Positions 3,167 through 59,340 are shown, numbered from the stretch's first letter. The stretch is DNA of 64,000 nucleotides from Thermoanaerobaculia bacterium (GCA_963664405.1 OY761158.1:3008001-3072000); one strand, 5' to 3'. The notes: a model not told the origin generated them from the letters alone. Numbers and translations are program-made.

Positions 3167-3242
3167 GGTGGCGGTGAAGGGATTCGAACCCCTGACACAG
3201 CGGATATGAGCCGCTAGCTCTAACCGACTGAGCTACACCGCC
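3166..3242 (-). tRNA. tRNA with CAT anticodon, most likely elongator tRNA-Met
   Basis: Reverse complement GGCGGTGTAGCTCAGTCGGTTAGAGCTAGCGGCTCATATCCGCTGTGTCAGGGGTTCGAATCCCTTCACCGCCACCA folds as a cloverleaf with encoded CCA. G1-C72 is paired, so it is not the initiator. The GGCGGTG acceptor and non-A38 favour Met over Ile2. Confidence 0.93.
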
Positions 3243-3325
3243 TAATGTGGTGAAGGCAAAACGCGCATCCCGCCTTTCGACGGCCGACTGAGCCGCTCAG
3301 TATATCCAGCCTGAGGAACGGATGG

Positions 3326-42253: not shown

Positions 42254-42837
42254 TCGTGATGGGCTTTCAGTACCGGGACGATGCAGAAAGACTGCGGGTG
42301 GCTTTGGAGAAACGCCTTCGGGAGTTTTCCCTGGAGCTCCACTCGGAGAAGACGCGGCTGATCGAATTCGGTCGGCTTCCAGCCCTGCGCCGACAGCGGC
42401 TCGGGCAGCGTCGCCCCTCGACCTTCGCCTTCCTGGGCCTCACGCACTACTGTGGGTGGACTCGGGATGGGCGATTCGTCTGCAAGCAAAGGACGCAGTC
42501 GACGCGATTGTCGCGGAAGCTGCGGGAGGTCAAGGTGGAAGCTCGGCGCCGGATGCATCGGCCGGTGGCGGAACAGCATCGCTGGCTTACCAGTGTGCTG
42601 CGAGGTCACTATCGGTACTACGGTCTGCCTGGCAACTCCAAAGCTCTGGCCTCGTTTCGCAACCAGGTGAGCCAGATCTGGTACCGGTCGCTTCGAAGAC
42701 GAAGCCAACGCGGCCTGCTCTGGCTCGCCTACAACGAGATCCTGCGCCGACTGCCACTCTTGCCAGCTCGTGTTGATGGCTGCGAGAAAGCGCATCCCGT
42801 TGGCTGCGAGCGCAGTTTCCGGGATGGAGTGAGCTGA
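42254..42837 (+). pseudogene. Group II intron RT C-half (class E-like), no DV/DVI after it
   Basis: (F)VMGFQ..DAE, LELHSEKTRLIEFGR, TFAFLGLTHYCG, LRGHYRYYG and LRRRSQR. Confidence 0.85.
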
Positions 42838-42939
42838 GGGCTTCGCGACCGCGGGAGAGCTAGCCCTTCTTCAGGAGGGCGGCATCATCCCGCCGGAACG
42901 GCGGTCCGGGTGCGTGGTCCCGGCTCCGGTACCGTTTCC

Positions 42940-44375
42940 TCACTCGCCAATGGCGGTAGTGGACCAGCCAGCTTGGACACGGCTACGCCGGAGGACGACT
43001 TCGAACTGCTCGGGCGGCATCGGCTTGCCAAACAAGAAGCCTTGCCCCGCGTCGCAGCCCTTCTGCTGCAAGAACGCAAGCTGACTCTCGGTCTCGACAC
43101 CCTTGGCGATCACCTCCAGGCCTAGTTCTTTGGCGAGAACGATGGTCGCGTTGATGATGCTGCGCTGTCCGAATGCCCGGGTACTCCCGCAACGAGGGAG
43201 CCATCGATCTTCAGCGAGCTGAGAGGATAGCGAAGGAGGTTGCTGAGCGACGAATAGCCGGTACCAAAGTCGTCCATCATGAATCTCACCCCGGCCTTAC
43301 CGAGCTCGGCGAGATACTGAACCACTCGTTCCATCTGGCTGGCCGCGTCCTTCTCGTTGATCTCCAGGCGCAACCACTCGGGAGCAAGACCGCTGACCTC
43401 GAGGGCACGGGTGACGACCGGCACGAGGTTTCCGGCCTGAATCTGGCGCAGCGATACATTCACCGAAATGGGGACCGGGGGCAATCCCGCTCGTTGCCAC
43501 TCGGCGTTCTGGCGACATGCCTGGGCGATCACCCAAGCGCCGAGAGAGGGGATGAGCCCACATTCTTCTGCCAGCGGGATGAATGTCTCTGGCGCTATGG
43601 TGCCCTTTCTTGGATGTTCCCAGCGGGTCAGGACTTCAACCCCGATCACCTGCCCATCGGTCAGGGCGACCTGCGGCTGGAAGTGGAGACAGAGCTCGTC
43701 CCGATTGAACGCGCCACGGAGATCCTGCTCGAGACCCCTTCGAAACTGCGCCCACTCCTTCATCGACGGGTCGAAGACTTGTAGGCTGTTGCTACGCTCT
43801 CTCTTCGCTCGATACAGCGCGGCGTCAGCGTTTCTCATCAGCTGAACAGGCAGCGGAACCCTCTTCCTCCACCCAAGTCCGCCGCGCACGCGGAGCAGTT
43901 GCTGGTGGTCGGGGTCGATCTCGAGACCTCGGTCAAGAGCCTCTATGGCAAGCCTCCGCTGCTCGGCTAGTAGATGAGTCCGCGCCAGATTGAGGTAGTT
44001 CTCAGGCTCTGACGGCTCAGCCCGAAGGGCACGTTGGCAGAGTGCGAGGCCCTCGGATTGCTTTCCTTCGAGAGACGCGATCCCGTAACCCAGATACGAC
44101 CAGGCGAGTGTTGGCGGACCTGGCGCAATCGGCGGGCTGTTAGCTGGGGCCCGCGCGCTTTCTAGCGTATAGGAAGGCAACCGGCGGTGGGCTTTCGCGC
44201 CGAACTTGTTGACGGAGAAGAGCAGGTTGGGGAGCCCCTCCTTCCACATCCCCGTGCGGCAGAGATTGATGCCGTGCCAGGCGAGGTCAATCAGGTCCTG
44301 CGTGCCGGAATCAATGCTAGGTGCACTCGCACTTCGTAGGTCTTGAACGACCCTCGCTCTGATCAACCTGTTCAT
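42940..44375 (-). pseudogene. Chimeric TPR protein fused to a GGDEF tail and degenerate EAL domain, frameshifted near 43160
   Basis: TPR ENYLNLAR, then NADAALYRAK, FQPQ, EVLTRW and [10 protein letters not shown]. The other frame gives [16 protein letters not shown]. Confidence 0.75.
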
Positions 44376-44896
44376 GACTGGAACCTGGGCTATGGAACTA
44401 GAGCACATCTCCGTCAGGCTATCGTCAGGGGATCTCTCCCTCGGCCCCGAGTTCTACACCCTTCCGCAGGAGCGATGTTTGCCCGGCGTACCGCCGTCGC
44501 TCTCCACGATGAACGGTCGGTTGCGGCCAGCCTCCACGTTCGATGGAAGCAGCAGCTTGGTGGCGTGCCTCCGCCGCCGCGCCCCTTCATGTTGGCGTTC
44601 GGCAGTCGCGAAACCAAGGACCCACGAGGCCGTATCAAGGGTCGAATAGGCTCGCAAGTGAAACATCCGATGTGTGGGGAGACAGATCGATGAAGAAGAG
44701 ACTGCATCTTTCGTATGAGACCCTGACCCTGATCGTTCTTGCCGGCGCGGCGGCACTCTTGGCCAGCCCGATCTCTGCGGCTGCCGCCGACGTCGAGCAG
44801 CCCACCTATGTCGAGCACATAGCTCCCCTTCTCCACGCCAACTGTGTCTCCTGCCATCGGCCCGGAGAGATCGCGCCGATGTCTCTACGCACCTAT

Positions 44897-46411
44897 CCCC
44901 AATTCGCGAATAAATCAGGCGGCTCGGAGGGCTTTAGCGACTCTTTGGAAGTCTTGTTGAGCGGCGGCTGAAGTGCCGAGGTCGAGGGTGATTCGGCCAG
45001 CAGGGTGAAGGAGGACGCCGGCTCGGCCGAGGAGTTTGAATCGCAGGGTGTGGATGGTTTCGAAGCGATGCAGAGTTCTCCGTTTGCGAGTCCGTGAGCG
45101 GGGCTGCGGGCGTGCCGCGACCTGAAACGACCGGGCGAGGTTGAAGGCGAGGACGCTGAGCACTTGCCAGGCAGCATTGGCCGCTGCCTTGAGACTGGGG
45201 ACACAGTTGAACGCGAAGCCGTTGCGTAACTCAGCGTAGGCCTTCTCGTGGGTCCCTCGACCGTTGAGGAAGTGCCACAGATTCCGGCCGTTCAGCTGTT
45301 TGTTGGTGGTGATCGCCGAGTACTCGTAGTGGCCGTCGTCGGGGTCGAACAGGTCGAGCTGGAAGTTCTTGCGCGTCTCGTGAGCCACCCGCTTGCGGTA
45401 GAGCACGATGCGGCGCACCTGGTTCCAGGCGGCCACCCGAGTGCGGGTCTCACAAAAGCTCACCGTGTCGTCGATGCGGATCCACTTCGCAGCCTGAGCC
45501 ACCGCCGCCTTCAGGTGCAGCCAGGGGTAGAACGGGACCTTGATCGCGTACTCCGCCCTCGCCGAGTCCAGGAACTCCAAGACATCCCGGCGAAAGAACG
45601 CCCCGTCCATGCGGAACTCCAGGCGTACGCCACGATCGACCGTGGCGCGAATCTGGTCGAGAAGCGCTGAGAGAAAGTTAAGAGACGCTTTTCCATCGTG
45701 CACGTTGCCTGGGCGGTTCTCGACCCGCAGGATCTGACCCGACTGCGCCTCGTAGGCGGTGATCGGGTAGTAGCTCGGAACCTTCCGGTGGTGAGGGTTG
45801 AAGCCACGCTTCGCTCCTTCGACCGTCTGTCCGGTCGACACCACCGAGCCGTCGACATCGATCGTCAAACGCGCCAGTCTCGCCTTCTGAAGAGCCTCGC
45901 CCACCACCTCAGAGTTCAGCCGCACCAAACGCGCCACGTGACTCTCAGACAGTTGCGCCAGCCACCCGCTCACGGTCCTCGGCGACGGCAGTCGGCGGAG
46001 TCCGGCGAACCGGGCCAAGATCGGATCCGACTGCACGTAGCGAAGGTGCCAGATCCGTCGACCGCCGACCATCAGAAGGCCAAGCAGCACAAGGAGCATC
46101 GGAACGGTGCCGAAGTCGCTTCTCGGGAACGACCTTCCGACCCACCGCCGAAGCCGCTCGCGAAACCTCCGCCTCTGAAGGAAGTCCCGGAACAGCTCCA
46201 ATCCGGCCTGCGAAGTAACTTGCTGCAGGCCGCACCGGTACTCGACCCGACCGTTGACCCGACCCCTGAGATCTGCTCTGCTTAACCGCACTGAGAGTGC
46301 CCTTTCGTTGTGGTGACTTCTTTCGGCTTTGACACCCGAAGTACACCACAGCGGAGGGCCCTTTCGCTTCTTAGACCACCAGATCAGACCGCTCTTTTTC
46401 GCGAATTGGGG
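44897..46411 (-). mobile_element. IS1380-family insertion sequence
   Basis: 14-bp IRs CCCCAATTCGCGAA / TTCGCGAATTGGGG and a 4-bp CTAT duplication. Confidence 0.92.
44915..46291 (-). CDS. IS1380-family transposase
   Basis: TIDVDGSV, SYYPI, RPGN, RMDGAFF, RGTHE and ANAAW. Confidence 0.9.
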   Translation of the reverse strand: MRLSRADLRGRVNGRVEYRCGLQQVTSQAGLELFRDFLQRRRFRERLRRWVGRSFPRSDFGTVPMLLVLLGLLMVGGRRIWHLRYVQSDPILARFAGLRRLPSPRTVSGWLAQLSESHVARLVRLNSEVVGEALQKARLARLTIDVDGSVVSTGQTVEGAKRGFNPHHRKVPSYYPITAYEAQSGQILRVENRPGNVHDGKASLNFLSALLDQIRATVDRGVRLEFRMDGAFFRRDVLEFLDSARAEYAIKVPFYPWLHLKAAVAQAAKWIRIDDTVSFCETRTRVAAWNQVRRIVLYRKRVAHETRKNFQLDLFDPDDGHYEYSAITTNKQLNGRNLWHFLNGRGTHEKAYAELRNGFAFNCVPSLKAAANAAWQVLSVLAFNLARSFQVAARPQPRSRTRKRRTLHRFETIHTLRFKLLGRAGVLLHPAGRITLDLGTSAAAQQDFQRVAKALRAA

Positions 46412-46519
46412 CTATGACGAGGTGCGGCCCTGGGCTCGGTCGATCGGCAAGAGTGTTCGCCAGCGCGACATGCCGCCCTGGGACGCCGATGAAGGGTACG
46501 GGCCCTTCACCAACGACAC

Positions 46520-47064
46520 CAGCCTCCGCATCGAGACGACCGCGCACCACCAGCATGCCGTCGTCGTCGAAGTAGGCCTCGAGCGACCGGCTGGCATGTC
46601 GGCGCCGCTCTTCTTCCTGGTCCTCCAGGCGATCGACCCGTCGCCACGCTCGCACCAGCCTCTCGACATGCGCAGCGCTCCCGCAGCGAGCAAACGCGAG
46701 GAGCTCCTCTTCATTCTCTGGCGTCGCCACTCGGGTGAGCGCGCGAATCTTCGAGTACGACAACTCGCCTCGGCTCATCGACTCACTCAAGAGCGGCAGC
46801 TCGCCCAGAGCATGAGCAACCCGAACCTTCTCGCGTGCCGCGCCGAGAACCAGGCCGGTGCGCTAGTTGAGCCAGTGGGCGCAGGAGGCGAAGCCAACGT
46901 TCCAGCCGCCACGTTCGTCGAATTGGCGGATCAGAGTGAGGAGGCAGTAATTGGCAGCCTGAATACGAGCCGAGCTCGGCGATTTCTTCACCGAGTCTTT
47001 CGACCTGGCCGTCGAGAAGCGGCGGACCGGGGTTGGGAGAAAGCTCCGAGGGTTCTTGTCTCAT
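46520..47064 (-). pseudogene. DUF222/HNH-type protein N-terminal fragment
   Basis: SCAHWL.WR, AREKVRVARAL, GELSYSKIRALTRVATPENE and DDGMLVVRGRL across frameshifts; truncated. Confidence 0.75.
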
Positions 47065-47542
47065 TGCCTGTCGAGCCAGCGTGGCGGCTTCGGCGTGCCC
47101 TCCGGTGGCGGCGACTCGTCTCCACACTCCCGATCGGGGCGATACGTGCCCCTCAATTTCTTGACGGCGGTCGGCGTCTTGCGCCGCCCAGAGCGTGAAT
47201 TACCTGTCATTTAAAACCTCCATTTTTTGACGGGGGACAGAGAGTGGGCGTGGTCGCATTGCCGGGAGATCGAGACTCCAGGGGTTGGATAGGCCCCCCT
47301 AGGCCTGGAGTCCATAGACGACGGGCCCATTGCCAGCCGTCACGCTCGATCCCTCGCGCAAAACGGCGGCAGAGGAACCGGGGGCGGAGGGGGGGCTCCG
47401 CGGCGGCTCCCTGCCGCTCGGGGGCCGGGATGGGTCCGGCCCAAAAGCCTGGTCTGATCATACTCCTTCGGCATCGTTAGGGACGGTCTGGGGCTTCTTC
47501 GTTCACGCCGCGCCCGCCACAGGCCGCCCGTAGACGCCTCCT

Positions 47543-47875
47543 CTAGCGTACTTCCAGTAGGGAGAGGAGAACGGCTCGGTCCTGACGGGAAAGGCTCGTG
47601 AACTCGGCTCCGATTTCGAGGAGACCACCCTCGGCGAGCTCGACGTGAACCACTCGCGCCTCGGCTTGAATCAGCTCCTCGCGAGCGCCAATCTCGAGCT
47701 CCAAAAGGTCGCCCTCCTCCAGCCCTGTACTGACTTTAAAGCGGACGCCAGACCGGCTGAGATCGAGGGTTCTACCCATCGCGATCGATGTTTTTCGGCG
47801 CTCGCGCCTGGTATAGGCAACGAGCCTGATGGAGCGGACGCGAGGCGTCCTCCTGCGGTTCTGATCGCTTGGCAT
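47543..47875 (-). CDS. PilZ-domain protein
   Basis: RRTPR (RxxxR) and DLSRSG (DxSxxG). Confidence 0.82.
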   Translation of the reverse strand: MPSDQNRRRTPRVRSIRLVAYTRRERRKTSIAMGRTLDLSRSGVRFKVSTGLEEGDLLELEIGAREELIQAEARVVHVELAEGGLLEIGAEFTSLSRQDRAVLLSLLEVR

Positions 47876-48262
47876 CTGTGCCACCGGCACGGGTAGTTTA
47901 CGAGGCTCAGTGTACTCCTGCGCCACCCTGATCGTCCCCCAGTTCCACCCGCGGCGCGCCGATACGCAGGCAGTCCGGCGTAGGGCCACACAGAGGTGCC
48001 TAGAGCGCCCTAACACGGCCAGGGCGGGGGTGTGTATGCACCTAAGAAACGATCGGCCCCTGTAGGCGCAACTAGAGCGTAACTAAGTAGCTCTCGCCAC
48101 CTTCTTCTTCCGCACCAGCTCGACATAGCCCGCGCCTCAGCCTTCCGCTTGAAGGCTTCCACGCACGGGTCAACCTGGTAGAAGGCATCTTCAAGACCGA
48201 GATCTTCAGCGCGGTCCATAATAGCTAACGTACCGTGCCGGGGCTCATACCCAGCTTCGCCG

Positions 48263-48922
48263 CTATCTCGTCGAATCGAGGTAGGGCCGCAGTCGGTCGA
48301 GCACTTGCTCCGGCTCGGCGACAGCTACGGCTATGCCTGCCGGTTGGTCGCCCGGCGCCTGCCCAGCGGGGATTCTTTGCACCACCACGGCCGCCGCTCG
48401 AATCGGTTCGGCATCGTCCGGTGGCTGGAACTCCAGCGTGATCTCCGTGTTCAAAGGCGGGGGACTCTCGGTGGGAATGAAGAATCCTCCGAGCTCGATC
48501 TCGCTGGCGGAGACCTCCAGGAGGACGCGGTCCTCGTCGAGGGCGATGTGGTAGACGCCTTCCTCCTCGACCACCCCGTACTTCGCCTCCTCTCCTTGCT
48601 CGCCGAGTCTGGCCACCAACTCCTCAGGCGTCTGGAAGCGTACGCCCATACCCGAAGGGCCCAAGCGCCGTAGGTCCGGAGCGACCCATACGCGACGGGT
48701 CACGACGGCCTCGAAAGTCAACGGGTTCTTCCCGTGCATCACTTCCATGCGCATCTCGGTGCCGCGCCTGTAGGGGTAGGGCGTGACGATGAAGGCTCCG
48801 GTAGACGAGATGTCGTTGGTAAAGCCGTATCGGCCCTGCGAGGAGTCCCCCCCGACCCAGTAACGCACCTTAGATCGTCGCGAAATGCGGCGTGCTACGC
48901 GGCGCTCGGATGTCCTCTGCAT
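48263..48922 (-). CDS. Tandem PilZ-domain protein (second domain degenerate)
   Basis: ERRVARR, DISSTG and GMGVRF; second repeat GGFFIPT..GIAV. Confidence 0.78.
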   Translation of the reverse strand: MQRTSERRVARRISRRSKVRYWVGGDSSQGRYGFTNDISSTGAFIVTPYPYRRGTEMRMEVMHGKNPLTFEAVVTRRVWVAPDLRRLGPSGMGVRFQTPEELVARLGEQGEEAKYGVVEEEGVYHIALDEDRVLLEVSASEIELGGFFIPTESPPPLNTEITLEFQPPDDAEPIRAAAVVVQRIPAGQAPGDQPAGIAVAVAEPEQVLDRLRPYLDSTR

Positions 48923-49056
48923 TCGCCTCTCTCCTCTGCTTTCCTAGTCGCGACGAGACTCGGCTTCCGCTCTAGAAAGGTGCTCCTCGCACCCCATTAT
49001 AGCTGAGAGGCTATTTGTTGGCCACGGGAGGCTCACGAAGAGCGAGCCCTTTGTGC

Positions 49057-49257
49057 GGCATTGTCAGGTTGAGGCGGTCGCGGTCAGACTGGACCGATGA
49101 AGAGCGACAAACCCAGCTACTGCGGCCATCGGTTCCCACGCGAGATCATCAGCCACGCCGTCTGGCTGTACCATCGGTTCTGCCTGAGCTTCCGCGACGT
49201 CGAGGATCTCTTGGCGGAGCGCGGAATCGATGTCTCCTATGAGGCCATCCGTCCATG
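49057..49257 (+). mobile_element. IS6-family remnant (left IR and transposase N-terminus)
   Basis: GGCATTGT end and GHRFPREIISHAVWLYHRFCLSFRDVEDLLAERGIDVSYEAIR. Confidence 0.85.
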
Positions 49258-49563
49258 GACGAGCTGGAAATCTTAGACCCCGAGGTGCTCGTCATCGTCA
49301 CTTGTCTTGCGGTAAAGAAGGGCGGCGACTGGTACGCTTGTGCGATAAATTTCAAACTCGTCCAGACTGTCGAAGTCCCCCGTTTTGACGAAGGAGGGGT
49401 TCCGTTCTTCGGGCTCCAAAGCGCGGCCATCTGGGAAATGCACGCCATTACATTCGACGAAGACACCAGAAGAGGGGCTCGCTCGCAGATCGGCGATATG
49501 ACCGATCTTCTAATCAACGATTGGCTCGCGGCCAACACGGTGTCCCGATGAAGTATCCGAAGC

Positions 49564-50598
49564 TAGTACACCGGGACGGAAGTTCTGGAACGTATTATTT
49601 CAAGCTGCATGAGCGAAAGAGGGACACCGTTGGAGGAGGCGTACGAGGTCGTCGCGGGTGAAGCTCCACTGGAAGGGCTGCGCGATCTTCTGGTAGTGGT
49701 CTTGGAAGTCGAGGATGCGCTGGGTGATCTGGTGACAGGAGGCGAAGTCGTCGGGGGTGAGGGCCTTGCGTTGCAGGACGGAGAAGTAGATTTCGATTTG
49801 GTTCAGCCAGCTGGCGTGCACTGGCAGGTGAACCAGGATGAGCCTGGGCCACTGGCGGCGGAGTCTGTCAATGGCGCGCTGGCCTCGGTGGACGGTGCCG
49901 TTGTCGACAACCCAGAAGACCCGCTTCGCCGAGCGGTAGGGCTTGACGCTCATGACCGAGGCGACGAGAGCATCGAAACAGTCGATGGTGGATCGTTCAA
50001 CGACGTGGCCGAAGAGGCGGGCGCGATGGACATCCCAGGCGGCCTGGTACGCGCAGGTGCCGCGTCGACGGTACTCGTGCTCGACGCGGAGGGCACGGCG
50101 AGGGGCGGTCGGGCGAATCGGATGGCGCCGCTGGCGGATCTGAAGTCCCGCCTTCTCATCGGCGGAGAGGACGAAATCCCCTTCCTTGAGGGGCTTGTCT
50201 TCCCAATGACCGTCGTACAGATCCAGGACCCGACCGGCCTTGCGGGCGAAATCGGGATCGCGAGGAAAGATCCAGCTCCGGTAACTCCAGGGTCGAATGG
50301 CGTCTTGCGAGAGCCAGCGCCAGATAGTCGTGCCCGAGATCTCGGCGACGATGCCCTGGTCGAGGACATGGCGACGCAGCTCGCTGCGGCTGAACCGCGA
50401 CAAAGGAAGTCCCTCCGTGGCGGGGAGCTGGCAGGCCAGGGCTTTGACCTCAGCAATGATCGCCGGGGGGGAAATCGGAGGGGCGTCCTCCGCGGGGTCG
50501 ATCCTCTAGCCCCGCGAGTCGCCGATAGAAGAACCGTTTTCGCCACTTCGAGACCTTTGGCCGCGTGAGCTGAAGGGTGGCCGCGATGTCCTTGTTTT
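49564..50598 (-). mobile_element. IS630-family element, 5' end cut by IS3
   Basis: SADEK, EHEYRRRG, VDNGTVH and PVHASWLNQIEIYFS. HTH part lies in another frame across a TTTC7 run at ~50465-50474. Confidence 0.85.
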
Positions 50599-51615
50599 TG
50601 GAGCTACCCCGATTTGGTGGACACCGCTGAAAGTCCGAGAATGGACTTGGAGGTGTTCAGGAGATGGGTCAGTCACGGAGAAGATTCAGCGAGGAGTTCA
50701 AGCGCGAGGCGGTCCGCCTGGCTTACGGGACGGGGCGTTCGGTCGTCGAGGTGGCTCGGGAGTTGGATGTGCGTGCGGAGCAGATTCGTCGTTGGCGCAA
50801 GCATTTCGAGCACCGGGAGTCGTTGGGATCGGAGCCCGATCCCGCGGAGGAGGTCAAGCGCCTTCGTCGCGAGCTGGCTCGGGTGAAGCAGGAGCATGCG
50901 ATCCTAAAAAAAGCCTTGGCGATCTTCTCGGAGACGCAGCGATGCGTCTGAGTGTGGCGCAGCGTGTCGCGGTGTCGTTTCCGGTGGCGCAGGTATGTAG
51001 CGTCCTGGGAGTGTCCCGCAGCGGCTACTACGCACGTCTCGGGCGCGGTGAATCGGCCCGTGTGCGAGAAGATCGCCGACTCAAGCAGCAGATTCTGGCG
51101 GTGCATGTGGAGGCACGGCAGCGCTACGGGACGCCTCGTGTCGAGCGCGCGCTGCGCCGGTCGGGGACGCGGACGTCTCGCAAGCGCGTGGCGCGTTTGC
51201 GTCGTGAACTGGGATTGCGCACCCGCGACTCCCGCCGCTTCCGCGTGACGACCGATTCCGACCATCGCAAGCCAATCGCACCGAATCGCTTGCAGCGCAG
51301 CTTCACGTCCCGTGCTCGAGATCGCATCTGGGTCGGCGACATCACCTATCTGCGTGCCGGTGCGAGCTGGCTGTATCTCGCCGTGCTTCTGGACGTCTAT
51401 TCCCGCCGAGTGGTGGGATGGAGCCTCTCGAGCCGCATCGACGAGGGGCTTGTCCGCAAGGCCTTGGATCGAGCCCTAGCCGCTCGTCGGCCGGCCCGAG
51501 GCTGGATCCATCATACCGACCGAGGCGGCCAATACTGCGCGGACGACTACCGCGAGCGGGTCGACAAACTCGGAGGGGTCGCGAGCATGAGTCGCAAAGG
51601 CGATTGCTGGGACAA
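50599..51615 (+). mobile_element. IS3-family element (orfA 50664-50951, orfB truncated at KGDCWD)
   Basis: TG-starting IR, FSEEFKREAV, A7G slippery site 50906-50913, YGTPRV, WVGDITY and HHTDRGGQY. Confidence 0.88.
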
Positions 51616-51618
51616 GGG

Positions 51619-53712
51619 CTACGCTTCACACTGCACCTCCTCCGTAGGGTTCGGTTCGACGTCGAGGCGGCGCCGTCGTTGCGAGAGTTTTCGGCCCTGC
51701 ATTTTGACGGGCGGGTCGTCGCCGAGATGCTCGTAGAGGCACTCGTTCTTGTCGTTGTAGGCATGGGCACGCAGCAGGCCGTGGTTGCGCCATGTCTTCA
51801 CCGTGTGGGTCGCGACACCCAGTAGGTCAGCCATCTCTTCGAGGGTAAGCATTCCCCCCTCACGCAGTCGGTCGTACCTCTTCTTGATGTCGTAGTCACG
51901 GCGCAGTCGCCGGACGATGCCGGCGTGAAATCGTTTGCCCTCTCCGGAGAGATGGCCTCTGTCGTTGAGGATGCTCGCAATCTCGGCCTCGGTGTAGTCA
52001 TCAAGCAGGGTATCAATCTCGGCAACGACCTGTTTCGATGTTTGGCGTAACTCCCATGCTGTCGGCGGAATGGGCAGTTTGAGACTTCGTGTCGCGCCAC
52101 CTCGGAAGCGGACACCGACAACGATCTCGTCGCCCTTCGTCAAGGTGACGTCCTCGATGAGCAAGCGCACCATGCGCTTGCGCTCGCGTTGAGGCGTCTT
52201 CGGGTCGTTCCACAACCGCGGGAAGTCGGTGGCGAGGGCGAGGATCTCTTCTCGTTGCTGGTCGCCGAGCTGTTGGTGATCTTGCTGGCGGCGCTGCTCG
52301 AGCTCCTCCTGTGCGTCGTGCAGCCCGCGCAGCCTCTCGTTCCACTCGGCCTCGAGGACATCCACCACGAGGCGGTTCCCCGGATCGACCTCCATGAAGC
52401 GACGCCGAGCCAAGTCAGCCTCCTGTCGAGCTCGCTGTACGTGCTGGCGCCGCAGGGAATCGGCCTCGTGGATCCGTGCATCGAGCTCGACCTGGACTTT
52501 CAGTGCAACCTCCAGAGTCACAGGCGTAACCGTCTCCACAAGCAGCTCTCCGATGGCCCGATCGATGCCCTTGCCCGGGATCGACTGACACTTGGGTGTC
52601 GCGGTGTCGATGCCCTCGCGCTGGCAGACGTACTCGGGCCACTGAGTGCCCCTGCGCGTGTGATAGCGGACCGTCATCCGATGGCCACAAACGCCGCAGA
52701 GGACCAAGCCCTGCACCAGCGCTGGCCCCTCGCGCGGTGGGCTCTTGCGCCGGTCTCGGCCGTGGGCCTGGGCGTTGTCTCGTAGTCGTCTCAGGTTTTC
52801 TTCGAATTGTTCCCAGGGAATGTAACCGGGGTGCGCGTCGAGCAACAGCGCGGTCCACTCCTCACGCGGAAGCGACTTGACCTCGATGGTGCCGTTGACG
52901 CGCTTTTGCGTGTGAGTGCGACCGAAACAGAAAGCGCCAGCGTAGCGGGGATTGTGCAGCACCCTCAGGACGCGCCAGTGGCGCAACGACTCCCACAACA
53001 GCTCTCCCTTGTGGGGGCCGAAGCGCGGCCGGCGCGGAAACCGCAAGCCTTGCTCGCGGAAGTGTTTGACCGTCGCCGAGGCCGAGCCCATACGCTCGAA
53101 GGTCTCGAACAGGTGCTCGAAGCTCCGTTGGACCTGGCCGTCGGGATCTAACACCACGTTGCCGGTCGGGTCGTAGAGTAGGCCGACGGGTAACGGGGTT
53201 TGCAGCGCACCTCGGCGCGCCTGATTCAGAATGCCTCCGCGCAGCCGAGCCCGCATCACGTGAAGCTCCGCCTCGCTCATCGTGCCCTTGAGCCCGAGCA
53301 GAAGGCGATCGTTGAAATCACTCGGGCTGTAGACCCCGTCCTCGTCAAGGATCAGCGTGTCGGTCAGCGCGCAGATCTCCAGCAGTCGATGCCAGTCCGT
53401 GCTATTGCGTGCCAGGCGCGAAACCTCCAGCCCGAGAACGATCCCGGCTCGGCCCATACCGACCTCGCCGACGAGCTTCTGAAAGCCCTCGCGGTCGACG
53501 CTGGAAGCTGCGGACTTACCCAGGTCGGAGTCGATCACGATGACTCGCTCGATGGGCCATCCCATCGCCACCGCGCGCTCTCGCAACGCGTACTGGCGTC
53601 TCGTGCTCTCCGTATTCTCGAACACCTGGCGCACGGTCGACTGGCGAACATACAGGTACGCATCGCGTCGCAGGTGGCTTGGGGTCACTTTCTGGTGGGC
53701 GCTTGCGCTCAT
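51619..53712 (-). CDS. Large serine recombinase (Y4bA-like)
   Basis: YLYVRQST (catalytic Ser), EVSRLARN, LLGLKGTMSEAE, LHNPRYAG, zinc ribbon CGVCG..C..C, coiled coil and C-terminal HTH. Confidence 0.93.
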   Translation of the reverse strand: MSASAHQKVTPSHLRRDAYLYVRQSTVRQVFENTESTRRQYALRERAVAMGWPIERVIVIDSDLGKSAASSVDREGFQKLVGEVGMGRAGIVLGLEVSRLARNSTDWHRLLEICALTDTLILDEDGVYSPSDFNDRLLLGLKGTMSEAELHVMRARLRGGILNQARRGALQTPLPVGLLYDPTGNVVLDPDGQVQRSFEHLFETFERMGSASATVKHFREQGLRFPRRPRFGPHKGELLWESLRHWRVLRVLHNPRYAGAFCFGRTHTQKRVNGTIEVKSLPREEWTALLLDAHPGYIPWEQFEENLRRLRDNAQAHGRDRRKSPPREGPALVQGLVLCGVCGHRMTVRYHTRRGTQWPEYVCQREGIDTATPKCQSIPGKGIDRAIGELLVETVTPVTLEVALKVQVELDARIHEADSLRRQHVQRARQEADLARRRFMEVDPGNRLVVDVLEAEWNERLRGLHDAQEELEQRRQQDHQQLGDQQREEILALATDFPRLWNDPKTPQRERKRMVRLLIEDVTLTKGDEIVVGVRFRGGATRSLKLPIPPTAWELRQTSKQVVAEIDTLLDDYTEAEIASILNDRGHLSGEGKRFHAGIVRRLRRDYDIKKRYDRLREGGMLTLEEMADLLGVATHTVKTWRNHGLLRAHAYNDKNECLYEHLGDDPPVKMQGRKLSQRRRRLDVEPNPTEEVQCEA

Positions 53713-53996
53713 GCGTGGTTCTCCTGTAGATGGCTGAGAGCCATGGCGGCCAGCACGTTGATCAGATCCGCGCTCGTATCGTGAGGCAGTGCGGACGGCC
53801 TGGCTATCTCGGCGGACGGTGCCGGGGTCGGCGCGGGCATCTTGGACCCCTGTTCAACCCAAGCGGCCAGCCCTTGTCGCAGGAGAACGGCCAAGCCGAA
53901 CCGAACCGATAGGAGCTGCCGCTTCGCCGCATGTCCTCGGAGCTCCTCGTAGCGAGCGACATGGGCCGGAGCGTTCTGCTGGCGTGTCGCGCTCAT
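53709..53996 (-). CDS. Small hypothetical protein (Y4bB-like)
   Basis: ATGA overlaps on both sides; YEELR..GLAVLLRQGLAAW..LAAMAL. Confidence 0.7.
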   Translation of the reverse strand: MSATRQQNAPAHVARYEELRGHAAKRQLLSVRFGLAVLLRQGLAAWVEQGSKMPAPTPAPSAEIARPSALPHDTSADLINVLAAMALSHLQENHA

Positions 53997-54460
53997 GGCC
54001 GGCGTTTTTTTTCCTGGCGAGCCAGGGCTCGCTCAATGCTGCGCGGATGGATCGAGATGCCAAAGCGCTTCTGCACCCACTCGGCCAGGGCGGTTGCATC
54101 TGCGTCCGGCTCCCCCTCCAGCCTGTCGTGCAGGGCCTCGACGACCTCCTCGGATAGCTTGTGGGCGCGGCGCGGCCCCGGCTTTCTTGGCAGCAACGCG
54201 GGTAGGCCGCCTTCTTCGTAAACCACCTGGGCGTGGTAGAAGGATGGGCGCGACAACCCGAAGCTTGCCGCGCTCCGGCTCACCGTGTGTCTGTCCACCC
54301 GGACACGGCGCAGCATCTCGTACTTGACCTGCACGAGGTCTCGAGGGTCGAAGAACTCGCTCGAGGTGAACAAATCGTCCGAGACCTTCTCCGGCTGGGG
54401 ATGAAGGCACCCTCGTTGACGGAGGGCCTCGGCTTTCGGGTCGGGTCTGCGTCGCGGCAT
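53993..54460 (-). CDS. HTH protein (Y4bC-like)
   Basis: GAGGAG SD; FFDPRDLVQVKYEMLR, FGLSRPSFY, PGPRRAHKL and IHPRSIERAL. Confidence 0.8.
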   Translation of the reverse strand: MPRRRPDPKAEALRQRGCLHPQPEKVSDDLFTSSEFFDPRDLVQVKYEMLRRVRVDRHTVSRSAASFGLSRPSFYHAQVVYEEGGLPALLPRKPGPRRAHKLSEEVVEALHDRLEGEPDADATALAEWVQKRFGISIHPRSIERALARQEKKRRP

Positions 54461-54488
54461 GATCGTCTCCTCATGGAATGTAATTCTA

Positions 54489-54516
54489 ATTATGCCTCTC
54501 ATGGATCCTCTGTCAA
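54489..54516 (-). promoter_or_regulatory. Sigma70-like promoter of the recombinase operon
   Basis: TTGACA-N16-CATAAT on the minus strand, ~30 nt upstream of the HTH gene, in an AT-rich patch. Confidence 0.6.
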
Positions 54517-54675
54517 GGGGTGTCCACCAAGAGAGTACCGATAGATCGTGCATTAAATTGGCCTATCTCTACACTCCTGGTCACACTCCGGCACTCTTCC
54601 CGACATAATTGTGATTACATTCACGGCATAATCTCCTTTACGCACGGTGCCCCTCAACCGTCCTCACGCAGGTCT

Positions 54676-54970
54676 TCATCGCTCGCTCTCCCGGGTCAGC
54701 TTGGCGAGCTCGAGCAGGTCGGCCACGCGGTACATCGATCTGCCTGCGGAGATGACAACCACGGGGTCCTCGGCCACCGCACTCGTCCAACGCGCTGGAA
54801 GGGAGCGTAGCTCCTCGCATTCATCCAGGTAGAAGACCCGGTCCTCGCCCCAGCACTGGCGATAGTGAGCCAGCTCGTACTCACGCCCCAACAGCGGGTG
54901 GAACGGATGGGTTACCCGAAAACGTCGTTGCTCACAATCTGTATCGGGTGCATTCGACCATTGAGCCCAA
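54676..54970 (-). CDS. Y4bD/Y4pK-type (DUF5372-like) protein lacking an in-element start codon
   Basis: FRVTHPFHPL.G.E, WGEDRV, SLPARWT and DLLELA. Confidence 0.78.
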
Positions 54971-55731
54971 AGGCCGCGTCGAGCGCGCAATCCGCTTCCT
55001 GCGAAGCTCGTTCTTCGGCGCCCGAACGGTGAGCGATTTGGATCGTCTGAATCGGCAGGTCCTGGAATGGTGCCAGAGGTCGCAGCGCAGACCCTGGCCG
55101 CAGGACCGACAGCGAACCGTGAAAAGCGCCCTGGCCCAGGAACGGCCTCGACTGCTTGAGCTTCCCGGAGACGACGTCGAAACCGATCTGCGAGTGGAGA
55201 TCAAGGTCAGAAAGACGCCGATCGTGCGTTTCGACCTCAACGACTACTCGGTGCCGCACAGTCATGTGCAGAGGACCGTCACGCTCCTCGCCAGCGAGCA
55301 TCGGGTGCGGATCCTCGATGGCCAGGAGCTCCTCGCCGAGCACCCTCGCTCGTACTCCCGGGGCGAGCAGATCCTCGATCCTCAACATCTCGAGGAGCTC
55401 CTCGCTCACAAACGCAGGGCCCGACGACACCGGGGCTTCCATCGGCTGTTTTCCGCTGTGCCTCGATGCGAAGAGCTGATGCAGCAGCTCGCCGAGCGAG
55501 GCGAGAACCTCGGAACGCAGAATCCTCGAGGTTGTGCGGTCTCACGGAGAGATCTCGCTGTTGGAGCTCCTGGCTGAGCGGCACCGGTAAAGCCGGAGGC
55601 TGACCGAGGCCGCGCGGGTGCCGTTCGAGTAGGAGCCGGCGGACTGGAATCGCGGTGCGTGGTTCAGGAGCGCTTCGCGCACGGCTTTGTCGAGTCGCTG
55701 GGGGCCGTACTGGCGCAGGAGTCGGACTAGT
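54969..55731 (+). pseudogene. IS21 IstA C-terminal part; the last ~200 nt are inverted
   Basis: KGRVERAIRFLR, VRFDLNDYSVP and HPRSY. The continuation LLRQYG..AVREAL..VRPHNL reads on the minus strand at 55521-55731. Confidence 0.8.
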
Positions 55732-56318
55732 ACTGGGCGTCGTGACCATACGCTGCTTCTTACCCTGTTCAACACCGGCGCTCGCGTGCAGGAGCTCCTC
55801 GACCTACGGCCCGTCGATCTACAGCTGGATCGTCCCTTCCAGGTCCGGCTGCGCGGCAAGGGGCGCAAGGAGCGTCTTTGACTAGTGCTTGAGTCGATCG
55901 CATCGAACAGGGCGCGAAGCTCGCTGGCATCGAGATACTCGACGACCGGGATCGGGGCGCGCTTGAAAGGTACAGCGAGCAGGAGCTGGCAGGTTTCGAG
56001 ATGTTCGGGATGCCTGCCGGCAACAAAACGCGCGAAGGCATGAAGTGCAGCCAAGCGGGCGTTGCGCGTGGCGACACCGTTTGCTCGCTCCTGCTCCAGG
56101 TGATCGAGGAAAGCAATCACGGCGTCGGGCTCGAAGTCCGACAGATCGAGATCGATAACGGATCGGCCCCGGTCTGCTGCGAGGAAGCGAAGGAAGAGCG
56201 CCAAGGCGTCTCGGTAGCTCCTGACTGTGTGCGGACTTGCACCTTGTACTTGCGGAAGGTGCTCGCTGAAGAAACTACGAAGGGCTCGTGCGAGATCGTT
56301 CGGTGGGGCGGCTCTCAT
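55726..56318 (-). pseudogene. RIT tyrosine recombinase C, truncated with an internal inversion
   Basis: SPHTVRSYRDAL and TRNARLAAL on the minus strand. The next motif GRRDH..NTGARVQE..GKGRKER is flipped between two ACTAGT sites. Confidence 0.82.
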
Positions 56319-57304
56319 CGTGCACATTCCTCAGGAGCGTCGATGACGATCGACTGAGCGTGGCGAGCGAAGAGCTCGTCGGCTTTTTGAGCGAATGGCT
56401 CGAAGAGGGCAAGGTAGTGCTGTGTGGAGACGATAGAGACGTGGCCCATGTAGATCGCGAGGGCGGGCAGTTTGGCCTGCACGTCGACGCCCTCTCGGTA
56501 CCAGCGAAGGAGCGCTTGGTGGGCGAAACTGTGGCGCAGGTCGTGCACACGAGGGAGATCGCCTGTGGAGGTCTTGATCCTTGCGCTACGGAAAAGCTCC
56601 CGGAGTCCCTGGGCAAGACCGGCACCGGTATACGGACGCAGTCCCCGGCTGCAGTTACACAAAAGAGGCTGGTCGCCAGAAGATAGCAGCCTCCGGCGCA
56701 CCTGGAGGTAGTCTTCGATCTCGCGTGCGGCGTCACCCGACAGCGGCACGAGTCGCGACTTATGAAACTTGGTGGCGTCGATTCGAAGCGTGCGCTCAGC
56801 TGCGTCGTAGTCGGCGATAGTGAGCCGGGTGAGCTCGCCACGGCGTAGGCCGGTCGTGTAGAGCAGAACGACCGCTAGGCGAAAGACCTCACGATGTAAC
56901 GGCGAATGAGCGTGTGGCAGCAGGGCGTCGGTCACTCGTAAAAGGCGGGCGATTTCCTCCTGAGTGAAGAGATGAGGGCGTCTAGGCTGATGAGGATCTG
57001 GAAAGCCGCTGCGATCCGGCACAAAGCAGACGGGCTCATTGCGCTGCCGATAGAGGCAGAGATTGCGAACGATTCGCATCCGGTTGCGCCGCACGCCTGG
57101 CGAGAGGTGGGCCATCGTCGTGCACCACTGGGCGAACGTGTCGGCGCTGAGCTCCACTCCGTGACCCAGCGAAACGAGAAAATGGTCGAGATGCAGAAGC
57201 ACGTCGCGCTCCACTGCGTACTGCCGTCCGAGGCTCTGTTTCACGCGGACATAGCGGGCCATCGTGGGACCGAGGAGCGAGCAAAAGGAGGTGTGCCCCC
57301 TCAT
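56315..57304 (-). CDS. RIT tyrosine recombinase B
   Basis: TGLRRGE, TKFHKSRLVP, HDLRHSFA and YMGHVSIVSTQHY. Confidence 0.9.
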   Translation of the reverse strand: MRGHTSFCSLLGPTMARYVRVKQSLGRQYAVERDVLLHLDHFLVSLGHGVELSADTFAQWCTTMAHLSPGVRRNRMRIVRNLCLYRQRNEPVCFVPDRSGFPDPHQPRRPHLFTQEEIARLLRVTDALLPHAHSPLHREVFRLAVVLLYTTGLRRGELTRLTIADYDAAERTLRIDATKFHKSRLVPLSGDAAREIEDYLQVRRRLLSSGDQPLLCNCSRGLRPYTGAGLAQGLRELFRSARIKTSTGDLPRVHDLRHSFAHQALLRWYREGVDVQAKLPALAIYMGHVSIVSTQHYLALFEPFAQKADELFARHAQSIVIDAPEECAR

Positions 57305-58545
57305 CGCCGGGCCTCTTCGTGTGCAATCCCAGGCAAGTCGAGGGGACATCCCTCAGGTCCTCGACGTGGAGCCGGAGATAGACCGCTGGTACTTTCAACG
57401 CTCCGATGGCCGAGAAGGCCACCGATACTCTTGAGTGCCGCACCTTTCCGGAGCAGATGAATGGCCAGAGAGTGGCGCAGGCAATGAGGGCCTTGGAACG
57501 GAATCGGGAGGCCAGCACGGCGGACCCACCCCTGGAAGGCCTCTGTGACAGCCGTCGGTTTGAGCGTCCCCGCGGGAGCCCGGACGCGGAGGAAGACCTC
57601 TCGCAGCGGCAGAGCTGGACGACCGCCTCGAAGGTAAGAGAGGATCGCGGCGCCCACCTCCGGGGTCAATGGCACCTCCAGGGGGGAACGCACCTTGGGC
57701 CGCGGCACCCGCACCCTACCGTCGCGCCACGCGATGTCGTCGAGGGTGACCGAGACGACTTCGCAGGTGCGCAGGCCGTAGGTGACAATGAGCAGGAACA
57801 TGGCGTAGTCGCGCCGTCCCATCGCCGTCGAGCGATCGATGGCCCGGACGAAGGTGCGAACGGTCTCCCAGGACAGCGCGCGAGGGAGTCGCTCGCCACG
57901 ATAAACGCGAGGTGTATCGATGGCCGAATCGAGACCGGCCGCAGCGAGGCCACGCGCAGCTAGAAAGCGGAGGAACGAGCGCACGTGGGAGACGGTGTGC
58001 TGGAGACTCTCGCGGCTGAGCCGCTGCGCCTTGAGCTCAAGGAAGCCCTCAATCACTCCTCCGTCCAGAGATCGCAGGCAGTCATCGAGCTGCTCGTCTC
58101 CGCTGTCTCGTAGGTAGGCGAGCAACTCGCGCACGGTCGCGGCGTAGTGATTCAGCGTGCTGCGCGATAGCCCTCGCACTTTCTCGAGGTGAGAGCGGTA
58201 CGAGGCGCTTAATTCGAGAGCCGGGGTCGGACGCTGAGGTGCCAGCGCTCCTTGCGCCCCGAAATAGCGCACCAGCGAAAGGACAAGAGCGGAGCGGTAG
58301 ATGTCGTCCTGTGAAGACGCCGGAGCGTACACCAGGAGCTCTTGCGCCGAAAGCTCTTCGATCTTGCTGACTCCATCGCGCCGAAACTGAGCGTCAAGTC
58401 CCTTGGCGGCACGGACGCGCAGGCGAATGGGAAGGCGAGGATAGCCCTGAGACCTGAGCCAAACAATCAACCCCTCGAGATACGGTCCCAACACGGGCAG
58501 GCACCGGTAGCGAGCATGGGCTCGCGGAAACATCTCGGCAAGCAT
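57301..58545 (-). CDS. RIT tyrosine recombinase A (frameshift near the catalytic Tyr, ~57385)
   Basis: GRRDYAM, YGLRTCEV, HCLRHS and LGH. YLRLHVEDLR lies in a shifted frame. Confidence 0.88.
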   Translation of the reverse strand: MLAEMFPRAHARYRCLPVLGPYLEGLIVWLRSQGYPRLPIRLRVRAAKGLDAQFRRDGVSKIEELSAQELLVYAPASSQDDIYRSALVLSLVRYFGAQGALAPQRPTPALELSASYRSHLEKVRGLSRSTLNHYAATVRELLAYLRDSGDEQLDDCLRSLDGGVIEGFLELKAQRLSRESLQHTVSHVRSFLRFLAARGLAAAGLDSAIDTPRVYRGERLPRALSWETVRTFVRAIDRSTAMGRRDYAMFLLIVTYGLRTCEVVSVTLDDIAWRDGRVRVPRPKVRSPLEVPLTPEVGAAILSYLRGGRPALPLREVFLRVRAPAGTLKPTAVTEAFQGWVRRAGLPIPFQGPHCLRHSLAIHLLRKGAALKSIGGLLGHRSVESTSGLSPAPRRGPEGCPLDLPGIAHEEARR

Positions 58546-58690: not shown

Positions 58691-58720
58691 TCGACTTATG
58701 TGGTGCACCACATAAGTCGA
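58691..58720. repeat. Perfect 30-bp palindrome at the RIT/istB junction
   Basis: TCGACTTATGTGGTGCACCACATAAGTCGA equals its own reverse complement. Confidence 0.9.
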
Positions 58721-59013
58721 TGAGCTGGGCTATCTCTCCTACGACCACCGCCACGCGGATCTCCTCTTCGAGGTCGTCTCCAGACGATACGGCAACAAGC
58801 CCCCTTCTCACCACCAACAAGCCCTTCGCCGAATGGGCCGAAGTCTTTCCCAACGCCTCCTGCGTCGTCACTCTCGTCGATCGACTCACCCACCACGCCG
58901 AGATCGTCAAGATCGAGGCTAACTCCTATCGCCGCAAGGAGGCCAAGGAGGCTGCTGAAAAAAGGGCCAAGGCCCGCGCCAAAAGGCGGAGCGCAGCACG
59001 ACGACGCTCATGA
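58716..59013 (+). pseudogene. IS21 IstB ATPase C-half
   Basis: [24 protein letters not shown] and SYR. Confidence 0.88.
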
Positions 59014-59340
59014 CCCGAAGCCACTATCGGCGCCAGCTCCTCCGCCTCTATCGACTCCTTCCCGACACCCCTCACCGCTTCCACCACGGCGACCGCGTCA
59101 TCGTCGACCAGCTCTTCGACCAAGACCTGCCTCTCACCGTCCTCCAGGCCGCCCTCCTCCTCGGCTCCGCCCGACGCGCATGCCGAGATCCGCGCCTACC
59201 AAAGCTCCAGCCCATCCGATCCCTCGCCTACTTTCTCCCCATCCTCCGAGAACTCCCCACGACGCCACCCCCCGATGGGTACCTCGACTATCTACGCCAC
59301 ACCCTGAGTCGCGCCTCGCGGGCACAAAAAACCGACACTC
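59010..59340 (+). CDS. Hypothetical ORF coupled to istB; 3' end uncertain
   Basis: ATGA overlap with istB; YRLLPDTP...PIRSLAYFLP. Confidence 0.5.

Follow-up and report, generated by a model that had tools for sequence, protein, structure and literature searches.

Large serine recombinase elements that probably insert four codons before the catalytic glutamate of rve-type transposase genes

The clostridial transposons Tn4451/Tn4453 (TnpX) and Tn5397 (TndX) are moved by large serine recombinases (LSRs). They cross over at 2 bp, use several targets and are known to form an excised circle; elements of the Tn4451/Tn5397 type carry resistance genes as cargo and enter a short, GA-centred target of low information. 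A different serine recombinase, TnpA of the insertion sequence (IS) IS607, has a MerR-like helix-turn-helix (HTH) that precedes a small catalytic domain, and its target choice is loose. Here we describe an LSR element in a 64,000-nucleotide stretch of DNA from a Thermoanaerobaculia bacterium (GCA_963664405.1 OY761158.1:3008001-3072000; hereafter the window), whose genome is a single 6.78-Mb contig. We conclude that the region very probably holds one copy of a cargo-free, site-specific mobile element of 3.36 kb that is moved by an LSR and inserts at the stretch of codons around the catalytic Glu of rve-type (retroviral-integrase-fold) DDE transposase genes.

The window element resembles Tn4451 and Tn5397 in being a small to mid-sized LSR element with a 2-bp crossover and several targets, the circle being, for the window element, a prediction only. 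Unlike them, it carries no cargo, and its recombinase shows no match to DUF4368 (Pfam, E ≤ 0.01); it has three accessory genes, an AA core, a long conserved right half-site and a target in transposase coding sequence. With IS607 it shares the chemistry of transposition by a serine recombinase, but its 697-aa enzyme has the catalytic domain at the N terminus, followed by recombinase and zinc-ribbon domains, and is thus not a member of that group. These three domains are shared with the phage LSR integrases, whose recombination directionality factors (RDFs) include phiC31 gp3, Bxb1 gp47 and those of TG1 and SPbeta. The likeness extends to a small partner protein, here predicted to sit at the zinc-ribbon/coiled-coil junction, which is reported as the RDF hotspot (PMC11795197, PMC5814800). 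In contrast to the phage systems, the window element is no phage, has many natural attB sites in unrelated genes, and encodes a recombinase with a C-terminal extension of about 200 aa that includes an HTH; its small protein, of the family DUF5372, is unrelated to known RDFs and is placed as if for expression from the circle. Inteins and group I and II introns follow a similar strategy: they target that part of a widespread gene which is most conserved and constrained by catalysis, a choice by which targets remain available and are met again. Unlike these, the window element does not splice, and the host gene stays broken until excision.

A cluster of the same kind lies on pNGR234a of Sinorhizobium fredii NGR234 (NC_000914.2 33989-37258), with a DUF5372 gene, an HTH protein, a small open reading frame (ORF) and a recombinase of about 695 aa in the same order and with the same type of ends. 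Its recombinase is 52.6% identical to that of the window over 98% of the length. This cluster, too, has its insertion point at the K of KGRVER, its neighbours being ...ANTPQA and KGRVERANQTLQDRL of an ISNCY-type transposase, and many copies of it are found on rhizobial plasmids. It differs in belonging to another subfamily with diverged end sequence, and it is annotated only as 'recombinase family protein', 'DUF5372 family protein' and the like. An earlier note on the window used the name y4bABCD, which we take to refer to this cluster; the record gives WP accessions only. A whole-word literature search for y4bA returned no functional description of the cluster, and nothing was found on DUF5372. 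Similarly, our literature search found no description of the element family or of its target choice; supplements or the 1997 work on NGR234 could hold an earlier mention. As far as its main text goes, Durrant et al. 2022 (PMC10083194) mentions a TndX-like transposase subfamily, reports that many multi-targeting LSRs carry DUF4368, and lists other enriched LSR targets, not transposases; its supplementary target tables may bear on the novelty of the family. We regard the elements as an LSR transposon family, a variant within a known class, for which the coding sequence at the catalytic Glu of rve transposases serves as attB.

Five near-identical copies of the element are present in the genome, each with both ends, and no solo ends were found there. 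The copies differ at 50 alignment columns, one 3-nt indel included. When the five were aligned together with their flanks, similarity started at AAGGGCTACGC... and stopped at ...GAGCCCAA without exception. The window copy, W, measures 3357 bp including the AA dinucleotide that flanks it on each side (51614-51615 on the left, 54969-54970 on the right), and two of the genome copies measure 3354 bp. Its ends exhibit partial dyad symmetry, GGTGCA-N16-AA on the right against AA-N16-18-TGCACC on the left; in W, 16 nt separate AA from TGCACC at the left end, as they separate GGTGCA from AA at the right. The left end overlaps the final codons and the stop of the recombinase gene. The earlier note had placed the element at 51590-54990, and this location is correct, with the exact ends lying slightly inside it (Table 1).

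We found that the AA corresponds to the first two bases of an Asn or Lys codon four residues before the catalytic Glu. On the left of W, the IS3 orfB reads ...MSRKGDCWD and breaks at AA 51614-51615, and its catalytic-Glu part is gone. On the right, the plus strand from AA 54969-54970 reads KGRVERAIRFLRSSFF... and matches the IS21 IstA profile from position 227. Thus, as the earlier note had read these flanks, an IS3 orfB is cut at KGDCWD-AA and an IS21 istA resumes at KGRVER, the NCBIfam matches running to 313 for IS3 and from 227 for IS21. Across the five copies, rve-type transposase genes hold all five right junctions and four of the five left junctions, and the element genes are antisense to the transposase in every case. 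Twenty-two further IS21 copies represent empty sites: their flanks, identical over 700 nt on each side, are separated by exactly AA. The same holds for a 98.9% identical paralog of the target of copy L005, which is also empty. The single AA in the empty sites matches the expectation for a serine-recombinase crossover at a core of 2 bp, in which only the core is duplicated.

We found the same target choice in relatives of the element. These relatives, with recombinases of 53-94% identity, come from 30 genome contigs and 80 kept metagenome contigs (110 loci), the genome contigs being labelled Deltaproteobacteria, Gammaproteobacteria, Betaproteobacteria, Planctomycetota, Phycisphaerae, Binatia, Gemmatimonadetes, Spirochaetia, Armatimonadetes, Nitrospiraceae and Acidobacteriota, among others. 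Their ends were located by fuzzy match to the two end motifs, and the loci were turned to the orientation of the window. Of the 110 loci, 71 (66 distinct) yielded a left flank of at least 24 nt and 41 (39 distinct) a right flank of at least 15 nt; in the remaining loci the contig ends at or inside the element, or the ends are too diverged for the pattern. Glu stands at codon 5 in 40 of the 41 right flanks, the exception being L028, which reads NPYAK and has Lys there. The first codon is N in 31 and K in 10, and frequent strings are NAYAERF, KGRVER, KGKIER, NVFVERLWRS, NGVAER, NAFIES and NGYVES. An alignment of 37 right flanks has the C-terminal pattern typical of rve proteins, and column 5 is E in 36 of them. 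At the nucleotide level, 41 distinct right half-sites (five from the copies in the genome itself and 36 from other DNA) share G at +4 (36/41), G at +10 (32/41), GAR at +13 to +15 (40/41) and G at +17 (38/41). The left half-site is weak, with C at -8 and -9 and A at -5.

The left flanks end where the rve profile ends. A Pfam scan of the 51 left flanks that are free of stops and at least 40 aa long (13 of them shorter than 70 aa) matched rve in 24 at E ≤ 1e-3, HTH_21 in 15 and HTH_32 in 12. When ten long left flanks were scanned singly (E ≤ 1), rve was matched in eight, and the profile ended at 95-102 of 102 positions at residues 191-198 of 200, that is, at the junction; the left flanks of L050 and L029 gave no rve match in these single scans. 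In NCBIfam profiles the break falls between positions 313 and 314 of IS3 and between 226 and 227 of IS21, while IS481 left flanks run to 227-228 and right flanks start from 229. Because one and the same flank, the right flank of L003, matches both IS481 from 229 and IS3 from 314, these break positions are homologous. Both crossovers thus fall four residues before the catalytic Glu, and the flanks of homologs, translated and mapped on the rve alignment and profiles, favour the earlier note's proposal that the recombinase targets the catalytic-Glu region of rve transposases.

Plasmids provide further examples. A tblastn search found plasmid relatives in 478 records, including Rhizobium (125), Sinorhizobium (103), Bradyrhizobium (80) and others such as Streptomyces and Rhodococcus. 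Like the pNGR234a cluster, other plasmid relatives have the four genes in the same order and a recombinase stop inside the element end. The same target choice was seen in seven of eight complete plasmids examined; in a Streptomyces plasmid relative (L137), the ends were not recognised by the search pattern. With a slash marking the junction, a Burkholderia plasmid reads KGDCYD/NAPMESFW and Rhodococcus opacus pLPS8 reads GTSAD/NAAMESFF. Left ends of the IS21 type (...RPxxxxD/) occur in Mesorhizobium, Bradyrhizobium, Aromatoleum EbN1 and S. meliloti pSymA plasmids, and the Aromatoleum EbN1 copy adjoins an annotated ISAzo4 istB. Together, these results show that the target is present in IS3, IS21, IS481, ISNCY and other rve families, on plasmids as well as across many phyla, and that the target property holds down to about 52% recombinase identity, also in finished sequences free of the worry of chimeric assembly. 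The recurrence of the same break, in five of five genome copies and 40 of 41 readable right flanks elsewhere, is far beyond chance.

Table 1. Coordinates of the element, its genes and the surrounding insertion sequences in the window, and junctions of the five genome copies
Feature	Position	Strand	Basis or remark
Mobile element	51614..54970	- (genes antisense to target gene)	Same ends in 5/5 genome copies
Left end (P' arm)	51614..51637		AA, then a stretch finishing TGCACC; five-copy alignment; kept in relatives
Right end (P arm)	54947..54970		GGTGCA, 16 nt, AA; dyad symmetry with left end
Large serine recombinase, 697 aa	51619..53712	-	Pfam; alignment of 27 relatives
95-aa ORF, family not recognised	53709..53996	-	ORF list; start and stop overlap neighbour genes
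HTH protein (HTH_32/HTH_29/HTH_28)	53993..54553	-	Pfam
Sigma-70-like promoter, TTGACA-16 nt-CATAAT	54489..54516	-	11/12 hexamer matches
DUF5372 gene	54676..54969	-	Pfam PF17342, E 2.3e-20; extreme right end of element
IS3-family orfA (HTH_Tnp_1), left-flank IS	50664..50951	+	Pfam PF01527, E 3.5e-18
IS3-family orfB, 5' part	50792..51613	+	Pfam HTH_21 and rve; NCBIfam transpos_IS3 113-313 of 369, E 1e-64
IS21 istA, 3' part	54969..55577	+	Starts at K of KGRVER; Mu-transpos_C_2; IS21 profile 227-293 of 294
IS21 reference 1-155	42771..42924	+	Detached left end, 98% identical to reference
IS21 reference 1438-1990	54969..55521	+	
IS21 reference 2003-2207	55523..55726	- (inverted)	
IS21 reference 2730-3290	58717..59275	+	Right end with 3' part of istB
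Copy W			Left IS3 KGDCWD; right IS21 KGRVER
Copy L002			Left IS21 ...VAAVARGNE; right IS21 KGRVER; clean insertion
Copy L004			Left IS481-like ...RPYRPRT; right IS481-like NGKAERFIQTL; host gene carries a stop
Copy L003			Left IS1182-like gene ...PRRGRPRT; right IS481-like NGKAERFIQTL
Copy L005			Left ...APRSPWQ; right NPYAERVIGSMRRECLDH; junction SPWQ/NPYAER

The recombinase contains, according to Pfam, a Resolvase domain (PF00239, residues 18-169, E 2.5e-17), a Recombinase domain (PF07508, 199-312) and a zinc ribbon (PF13408, 334-389); its C-terminal extension carries an HTH_17/MerR-like motif at 621-660. The catalytic Ser25 (in R-Q-S-T) and Cys 339, 342, 363 and 375 are invariant in an alignment of 27 relatives. 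Heptad-like charged residues are abundant at about 400-500, where a coiled coil is presumed, and the predicted interface with DUF5372 is made up of the two flanks of this region. The best NCBIfam match is XisF, under the cut-off of that profile, and a sequence search of the PDB returned two resolvase-type catalytic domains only. By its domain set, its invariant Ser25 and the 2-bp AA core, the enzyme is an LSR, and it is predicted to catalyse attP x attB recombination.

As noted above, W lies between two different ISs. The left-flank IS3 is unique in the assembly, which lacks its 3' part, while the right-flank IS21 is an older copy that is 98.9% identical (6 differences in 551 nt) to 23 others, themselves mutually identical. 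Mapping of a 3290-bp IS21 reference onto the window by blastn recovered four separate pieces (Table 1); IS21 positions 156-1437 are absent from the window, and the interval 42925-51613 holds fragments of other genes and ISs. The detached left end at 42771-42924 may be the partner that the right-flank IS21 lacks. We compared contigs of four public runs (two organisms) with 50900-55500. In all four runs, a contig departs from the window at 51615 and continues as uninterrupted orfB, N-A-V-A-E-S-F-F after KGDCWD. The contig of run X20 is identical to the window over 50900-51615 (716 nt) and thus provides a natural IS3 attB that fits the consensus. Other contig ends in these runs reproduce the left flanks of L003 and L005 and the IS481 right flank, in addition to one further IS481-like right flank.

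Single-nucleotide polymorphisms (SNPs) sort the copies into haplotypes. The chimeric copies W and L003 share one body haplotype, and a second is common to L002 and L004. Beside its IS481 flank, L003 switches to the haplotype of L002 and L004 at the last four variable positions (54666-54753), and L004 sits in the IS481 paralog. The mosaic of L003 therefore fits a crossover within the element that joined one copy lying in the IS1182 pseudo-site to another lying in an IS481. For W the support from SNPs is weaker than for L003, because SNPs private to W lie near its two ends (51725 and 52039 on the left, 54726 on the right). We consider it most likely that the mismatched flanks of W arose by homologous recombination between two resident copies, one in the IS3 and one in the old IS21, with loss of the intervening DNA.

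A hybrid might instead be produced in one step by the recombinase of the element itself, acting on the left junction of a copy resident in IS21 and an empty IS3 attB or recombining two copies site-specifically. Two of the five genome copies (W and L003) are mismatched with both breaks exactly at AA, and the left flank of L003 is a pseudo-site resembling an IS481 left half-site, both of which this route would explain. We nevertheless regard it as unlikely: homologous recombination inside the element leaves equally exact junctions, the haplotype switch of L003 puts the crossover inside the element and not at AA, and the serine integrases characterised so far are stated to pair attP x attB only, or attL x attR with an RDF (PMC3783163, PMC5499577).

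It is still less probable that the IS3/IS21 mismatch is an artefact of assembly, two true insertions having been joined through the 3.36-kb repeat. Indeed, both the element, with five copies, and its IS21 flank, with more than 20, are repeats; the assembly lacks the 3' part of the IS3, of which the public runs contain an intact version; and chimeric flanks also occur in the metagenome contigs L060 and L096, where misjoins are common. No contig of the four runs spans the element, and these are contigs only, so that the absence carries no weight. Against an artefact, the genome forms one contig despite more than 20 IS21 copies identical over 1.4 kb, which points to reads longer than the element. 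In addition, SNPs private to this copy mark W near either end, the IS21 beside it is a separate, older one, and a 57-nt contig of run X21 carries the IS3/element junction at unique-flank depth, with fewer than 31 letters on each side. Of the two origins that the earlier note had allowed for the mismatch, recombined insertions or collapse in the assembly, the first is the more plausible, and the L003 mosaic fits it.

Four other loci (L060, L096, L066 and L037) have flanks that apparently derive from different transposase families, for example an IS21-type ...ARGNE on the left and NGVAERAIKS... on the right; these are either natural hybrids or chimeric assemblies.

Several junctions bear on what the recombinase recognises. 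The left half-sites of L003 and L004, in IS1182-like and IS481-like genes respectively, are alike at 12 of 13 bases before the AA (CCGGCCTCGCACC and CCGACCTCGCACC). The corresponding place in two IS1182 relatives from this genome reads PPRRGRPF..., and the RGRP string is thus native to that gene. The right flank of L029, AA-G-G-ACTGG-GTCGAG, fits the nucleotide consensus though it is non-rve. We read these results as suggesting that the recombinase recognises DNA and not the protein product, and that rve genes often carry the motif because their catalytic helix is encoded by it.

A number of observations weigh against specialisation on rve genes and against the mobility that we propose. Junctions outside rve genes occur on the left of L003 (IS1182-like), in L074 (IS256/Mutator) and in L071 (luciferase-like monooxygenase), and L029, L038, L041 and the left flank of L037 were matched to no family. 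Occupancy is low: only two of the 24 IS21 copies that retain the right half of the site are occupied, and none of eight second-type IS21, seven other IS3-type and five YQNGKQEN-type copies, despite AA and GAR in register. (Fourteen IS30-type copies have CGG in place of AAN and are not usable as sites for that reason.) A motif derived post hoc from the occupied sites has 42 matches in the genome, 28 in IS genes and 14 without a recognised IS gene; it was built from the sites themselves, which makes its enrichment circular, and it serves only to show that matches outside ISs exist. Within the genome, specificity is proven only up to a DNA motif of about 20 bits. Furthermore, the contigs of the four public runs contain no circle or attP junction, an uninformative result given that contigs drop rare variants.

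A serine transposon of low specificity, which would need AA and a few bases, insert widely and survive only in dispensable IS genes, would accommodate the insertions outside rve genes, the weakly conserved left half-site and the 468 genome matches to a 17-nt motif (AA-N7-GYNGAGMG), of which only 21 adjoin an rve profile end, but it is very improbable, as selection among survivors cannot give the same codon and orientation in families less than 20% identical, Glu at codon 5 in all but one right flank and breaks at homologous profile positions, and as even the non-rve L029 retains AA-N-G-N5-GTCGAG and the IS1182 half-site nearly equals that of IS481.

We also analysed the accessory genes of the element. 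The HTH protein resembles the N-terminal DNA-binding part of IS630, IS481 and ISNCY transposases (NCBIfam: IS630 12-109, IS481 2-109). Its true start is probably the ATG at 54460, which lies downstream of the promoter, the promoter itself being downstream of the DUF5372 gene. Loosened promoter hexamers are found at the equivalent place in 39 of 47 relatives, with a majority sequence TTGACN ... CATAAT and a variable spacer. This conserved position suggests that the HTH, small-ORF and recombinase genes form one operon. The 95-aa ORF has no family match in Pfam or NCBIfam. A small ORF is annotated at the same place in four of the five annotated plasmid relatives that retain the DUF5372 and HTH genes; in the fifth, from Bradyrhizobium, the annotated recombinase coding sequence runs over this position. 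Directly upstream of the probable HTH start, the 3-nt indel (ATC, 54462-54464) splits the haplotypes, being present in W, L003 and L005 and absent in L002 and L004.

The DUF5372 gene of the window copy has, by ORF analysis, no start codon within the element and no promoter upstream, and no element DNA lies upstream of the gene. A TTG at 54990, in the IS21 flank, was considered as a general start and rejected: it is outside the element, and the flanks of other copies differ. We modelled the joined ends, as they would occur in a circle, for the window copy and 37 relatives (n=38). In all 38, the DUF5372 frame is open across the modelled junction, and an in-frame start (GTG in 32, ATG in 6) preceded by GAGG stands four codons before it. 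Two features of these models weaken the reading of this as a start gained in the circle. First, the start and the GAGG are the same bases as the last codons of the recombinase and the P' arm, so that their conservation is over-determined and is no proof of a translation start. Second, an in-frame GTG (13 elements) or TTG (7) also stands within the right end in 20 of the 38 modelled elements, at 19 or 26-27 codons beyond the junction.

A structure model of DUF5372 (pLDDT, the predicted local distance difference test, 78.7) shows an SH3/KOW-like barrel with two C-terminal helices. No PDB structure matched this fold at E ≤ 0.001; the top rows were KOW/SH3-like barrels of ribosomal protein eS4 and NdhS, which do not point to a function. 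The model of the recombinase-DUF5372 complex scored 0.73, in comparison with 0.00 for the best of three controls. Among solved complexes 58 of 80 attained this mark, as did 2 of 110 mismatched pairs; own alignments were used, and the counts hold roughly. Contacts agreed from run to run at 72% or above, and partner pLDDT was at least 69. In the predicted interface, residues 21-26 and 69-95 of DUF5372 meet residues 338-343, 394-414 and 482-541 of the recombinase, the recombinase side consisting of the zinc ribbon and the two feet of the presumed coiled coil. Known RDFs, structurally unrelated to each other, are reported in PMC11795197 to bind the junction of DBD2 (the second domain for DNA binding) and the coiled coil. 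Owing to its predicted binding at the zinc-ribbon/coiled-coil junction, we propose DUF5372 as a candidate directionality cofactor, with an expression that may be coupled to circularisation; the direction it would favour is not readable from sequence.

These findings suggest a model in which the element would excise as a circle and then reintegrate. The attB is the DNA encoding [N/K]-x-x-x-E-[R/S] of rve-type DDE transposases, with the crossover at bases one and two of the N/K codon, which precedes the codon of the catalytic Glu by four, as a 2-bp staggered exchange with a circular attP would give. Insertion would put the catalytic Glu out of reading frame and disable the host IS, and precise excision would restore it. 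Because its ends stay intact, an occupied IS could be moved in trans by intact sister copies, with the element as passenger. The internal promoter would drive the HTH, small-ORF and recombinase genes; DUF5372 would be co-transcribed, with its GTG or ATG start gained, only once the ends are joined in the circle, and may set direction through its predicted binding to the recombinase. Tentatively, then, we envisage a cross-phylum family of hyperparasites whose recombinase may read a degenerate motif that exists only through the coding of a catalytic helix, with ISs that would serve as harbours and vehicles and be reversibly switched off, and with DUF5372, whose gene would enter the operon and acquire a start codon in the circle alone, perhaps setting direction.

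A mobile element specialised on the active-site coding sequence of other mobile elements would add a layer of parasitism and control to IS biology, in which an occupied IS is disabled and could be re-armed by precise excision. Insertions of this kind would explain many annotations of 'interrupted transposase' and many contig breaks, and recombination between copies can yield deletions and hybrid IS remnants such as those in the window. For recombinase engineering, the family may offer natural LSRs that accept a set of related attB sites defined by a readable motif, as well as a candidate for a new type of directionality cofactor.

The surroundings of W and of the other copies contain further mobile DNA. 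The old IS21 on the right of W further holds the remains of a 'recombinase in trio' type element (55542-58545, minus strand), placed between istA and the istB 3' part, with three adjacent tyrosine-recombinase-like ORFs; two have Phage_integrase domains, and the third has a SAM-like N-terminal domain only and is fused to the inverted istA piece. The mobile-DNA fragments at 42925-50600, which separate the detached IS21 left end from the IS3, include a piece of an EAL-domain gene, a DDE_Tnp_1_4 transposase (44918-46291), two PilZ-like ORFs, an IS6-like fragment (about 49097-49276) and a DDE_3 (IS630-like) transposase (49603-50403). At 40758-42837, a reverse transcriptase (RT)/maturase gene of a group II intron (RVT_1 and GIIM) is followed by a second, overlapping RT-like frame that continues directly into the detached left end of IS21 at 42771; the intron seems to border on the IS end. 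At the L002 locus (G000:C1:6338879-6339208), an IS30-type transposase gene (…HSPWQRGTNENTNGLL) is cut shortly past its catalytic Glu, where the IS21 that bears L002 begins, giving a three-level nesting of element in IS21 in IS30. The reference copy of this IS21 (G000:C1:449310-452599) is 3290 bp long, with about 590 bp and a 161-aa cysteine-rich ORF upstream of istA, and the identity of more than 20 copies over the 1.4 kb compared suggests that its expansion is very recent.

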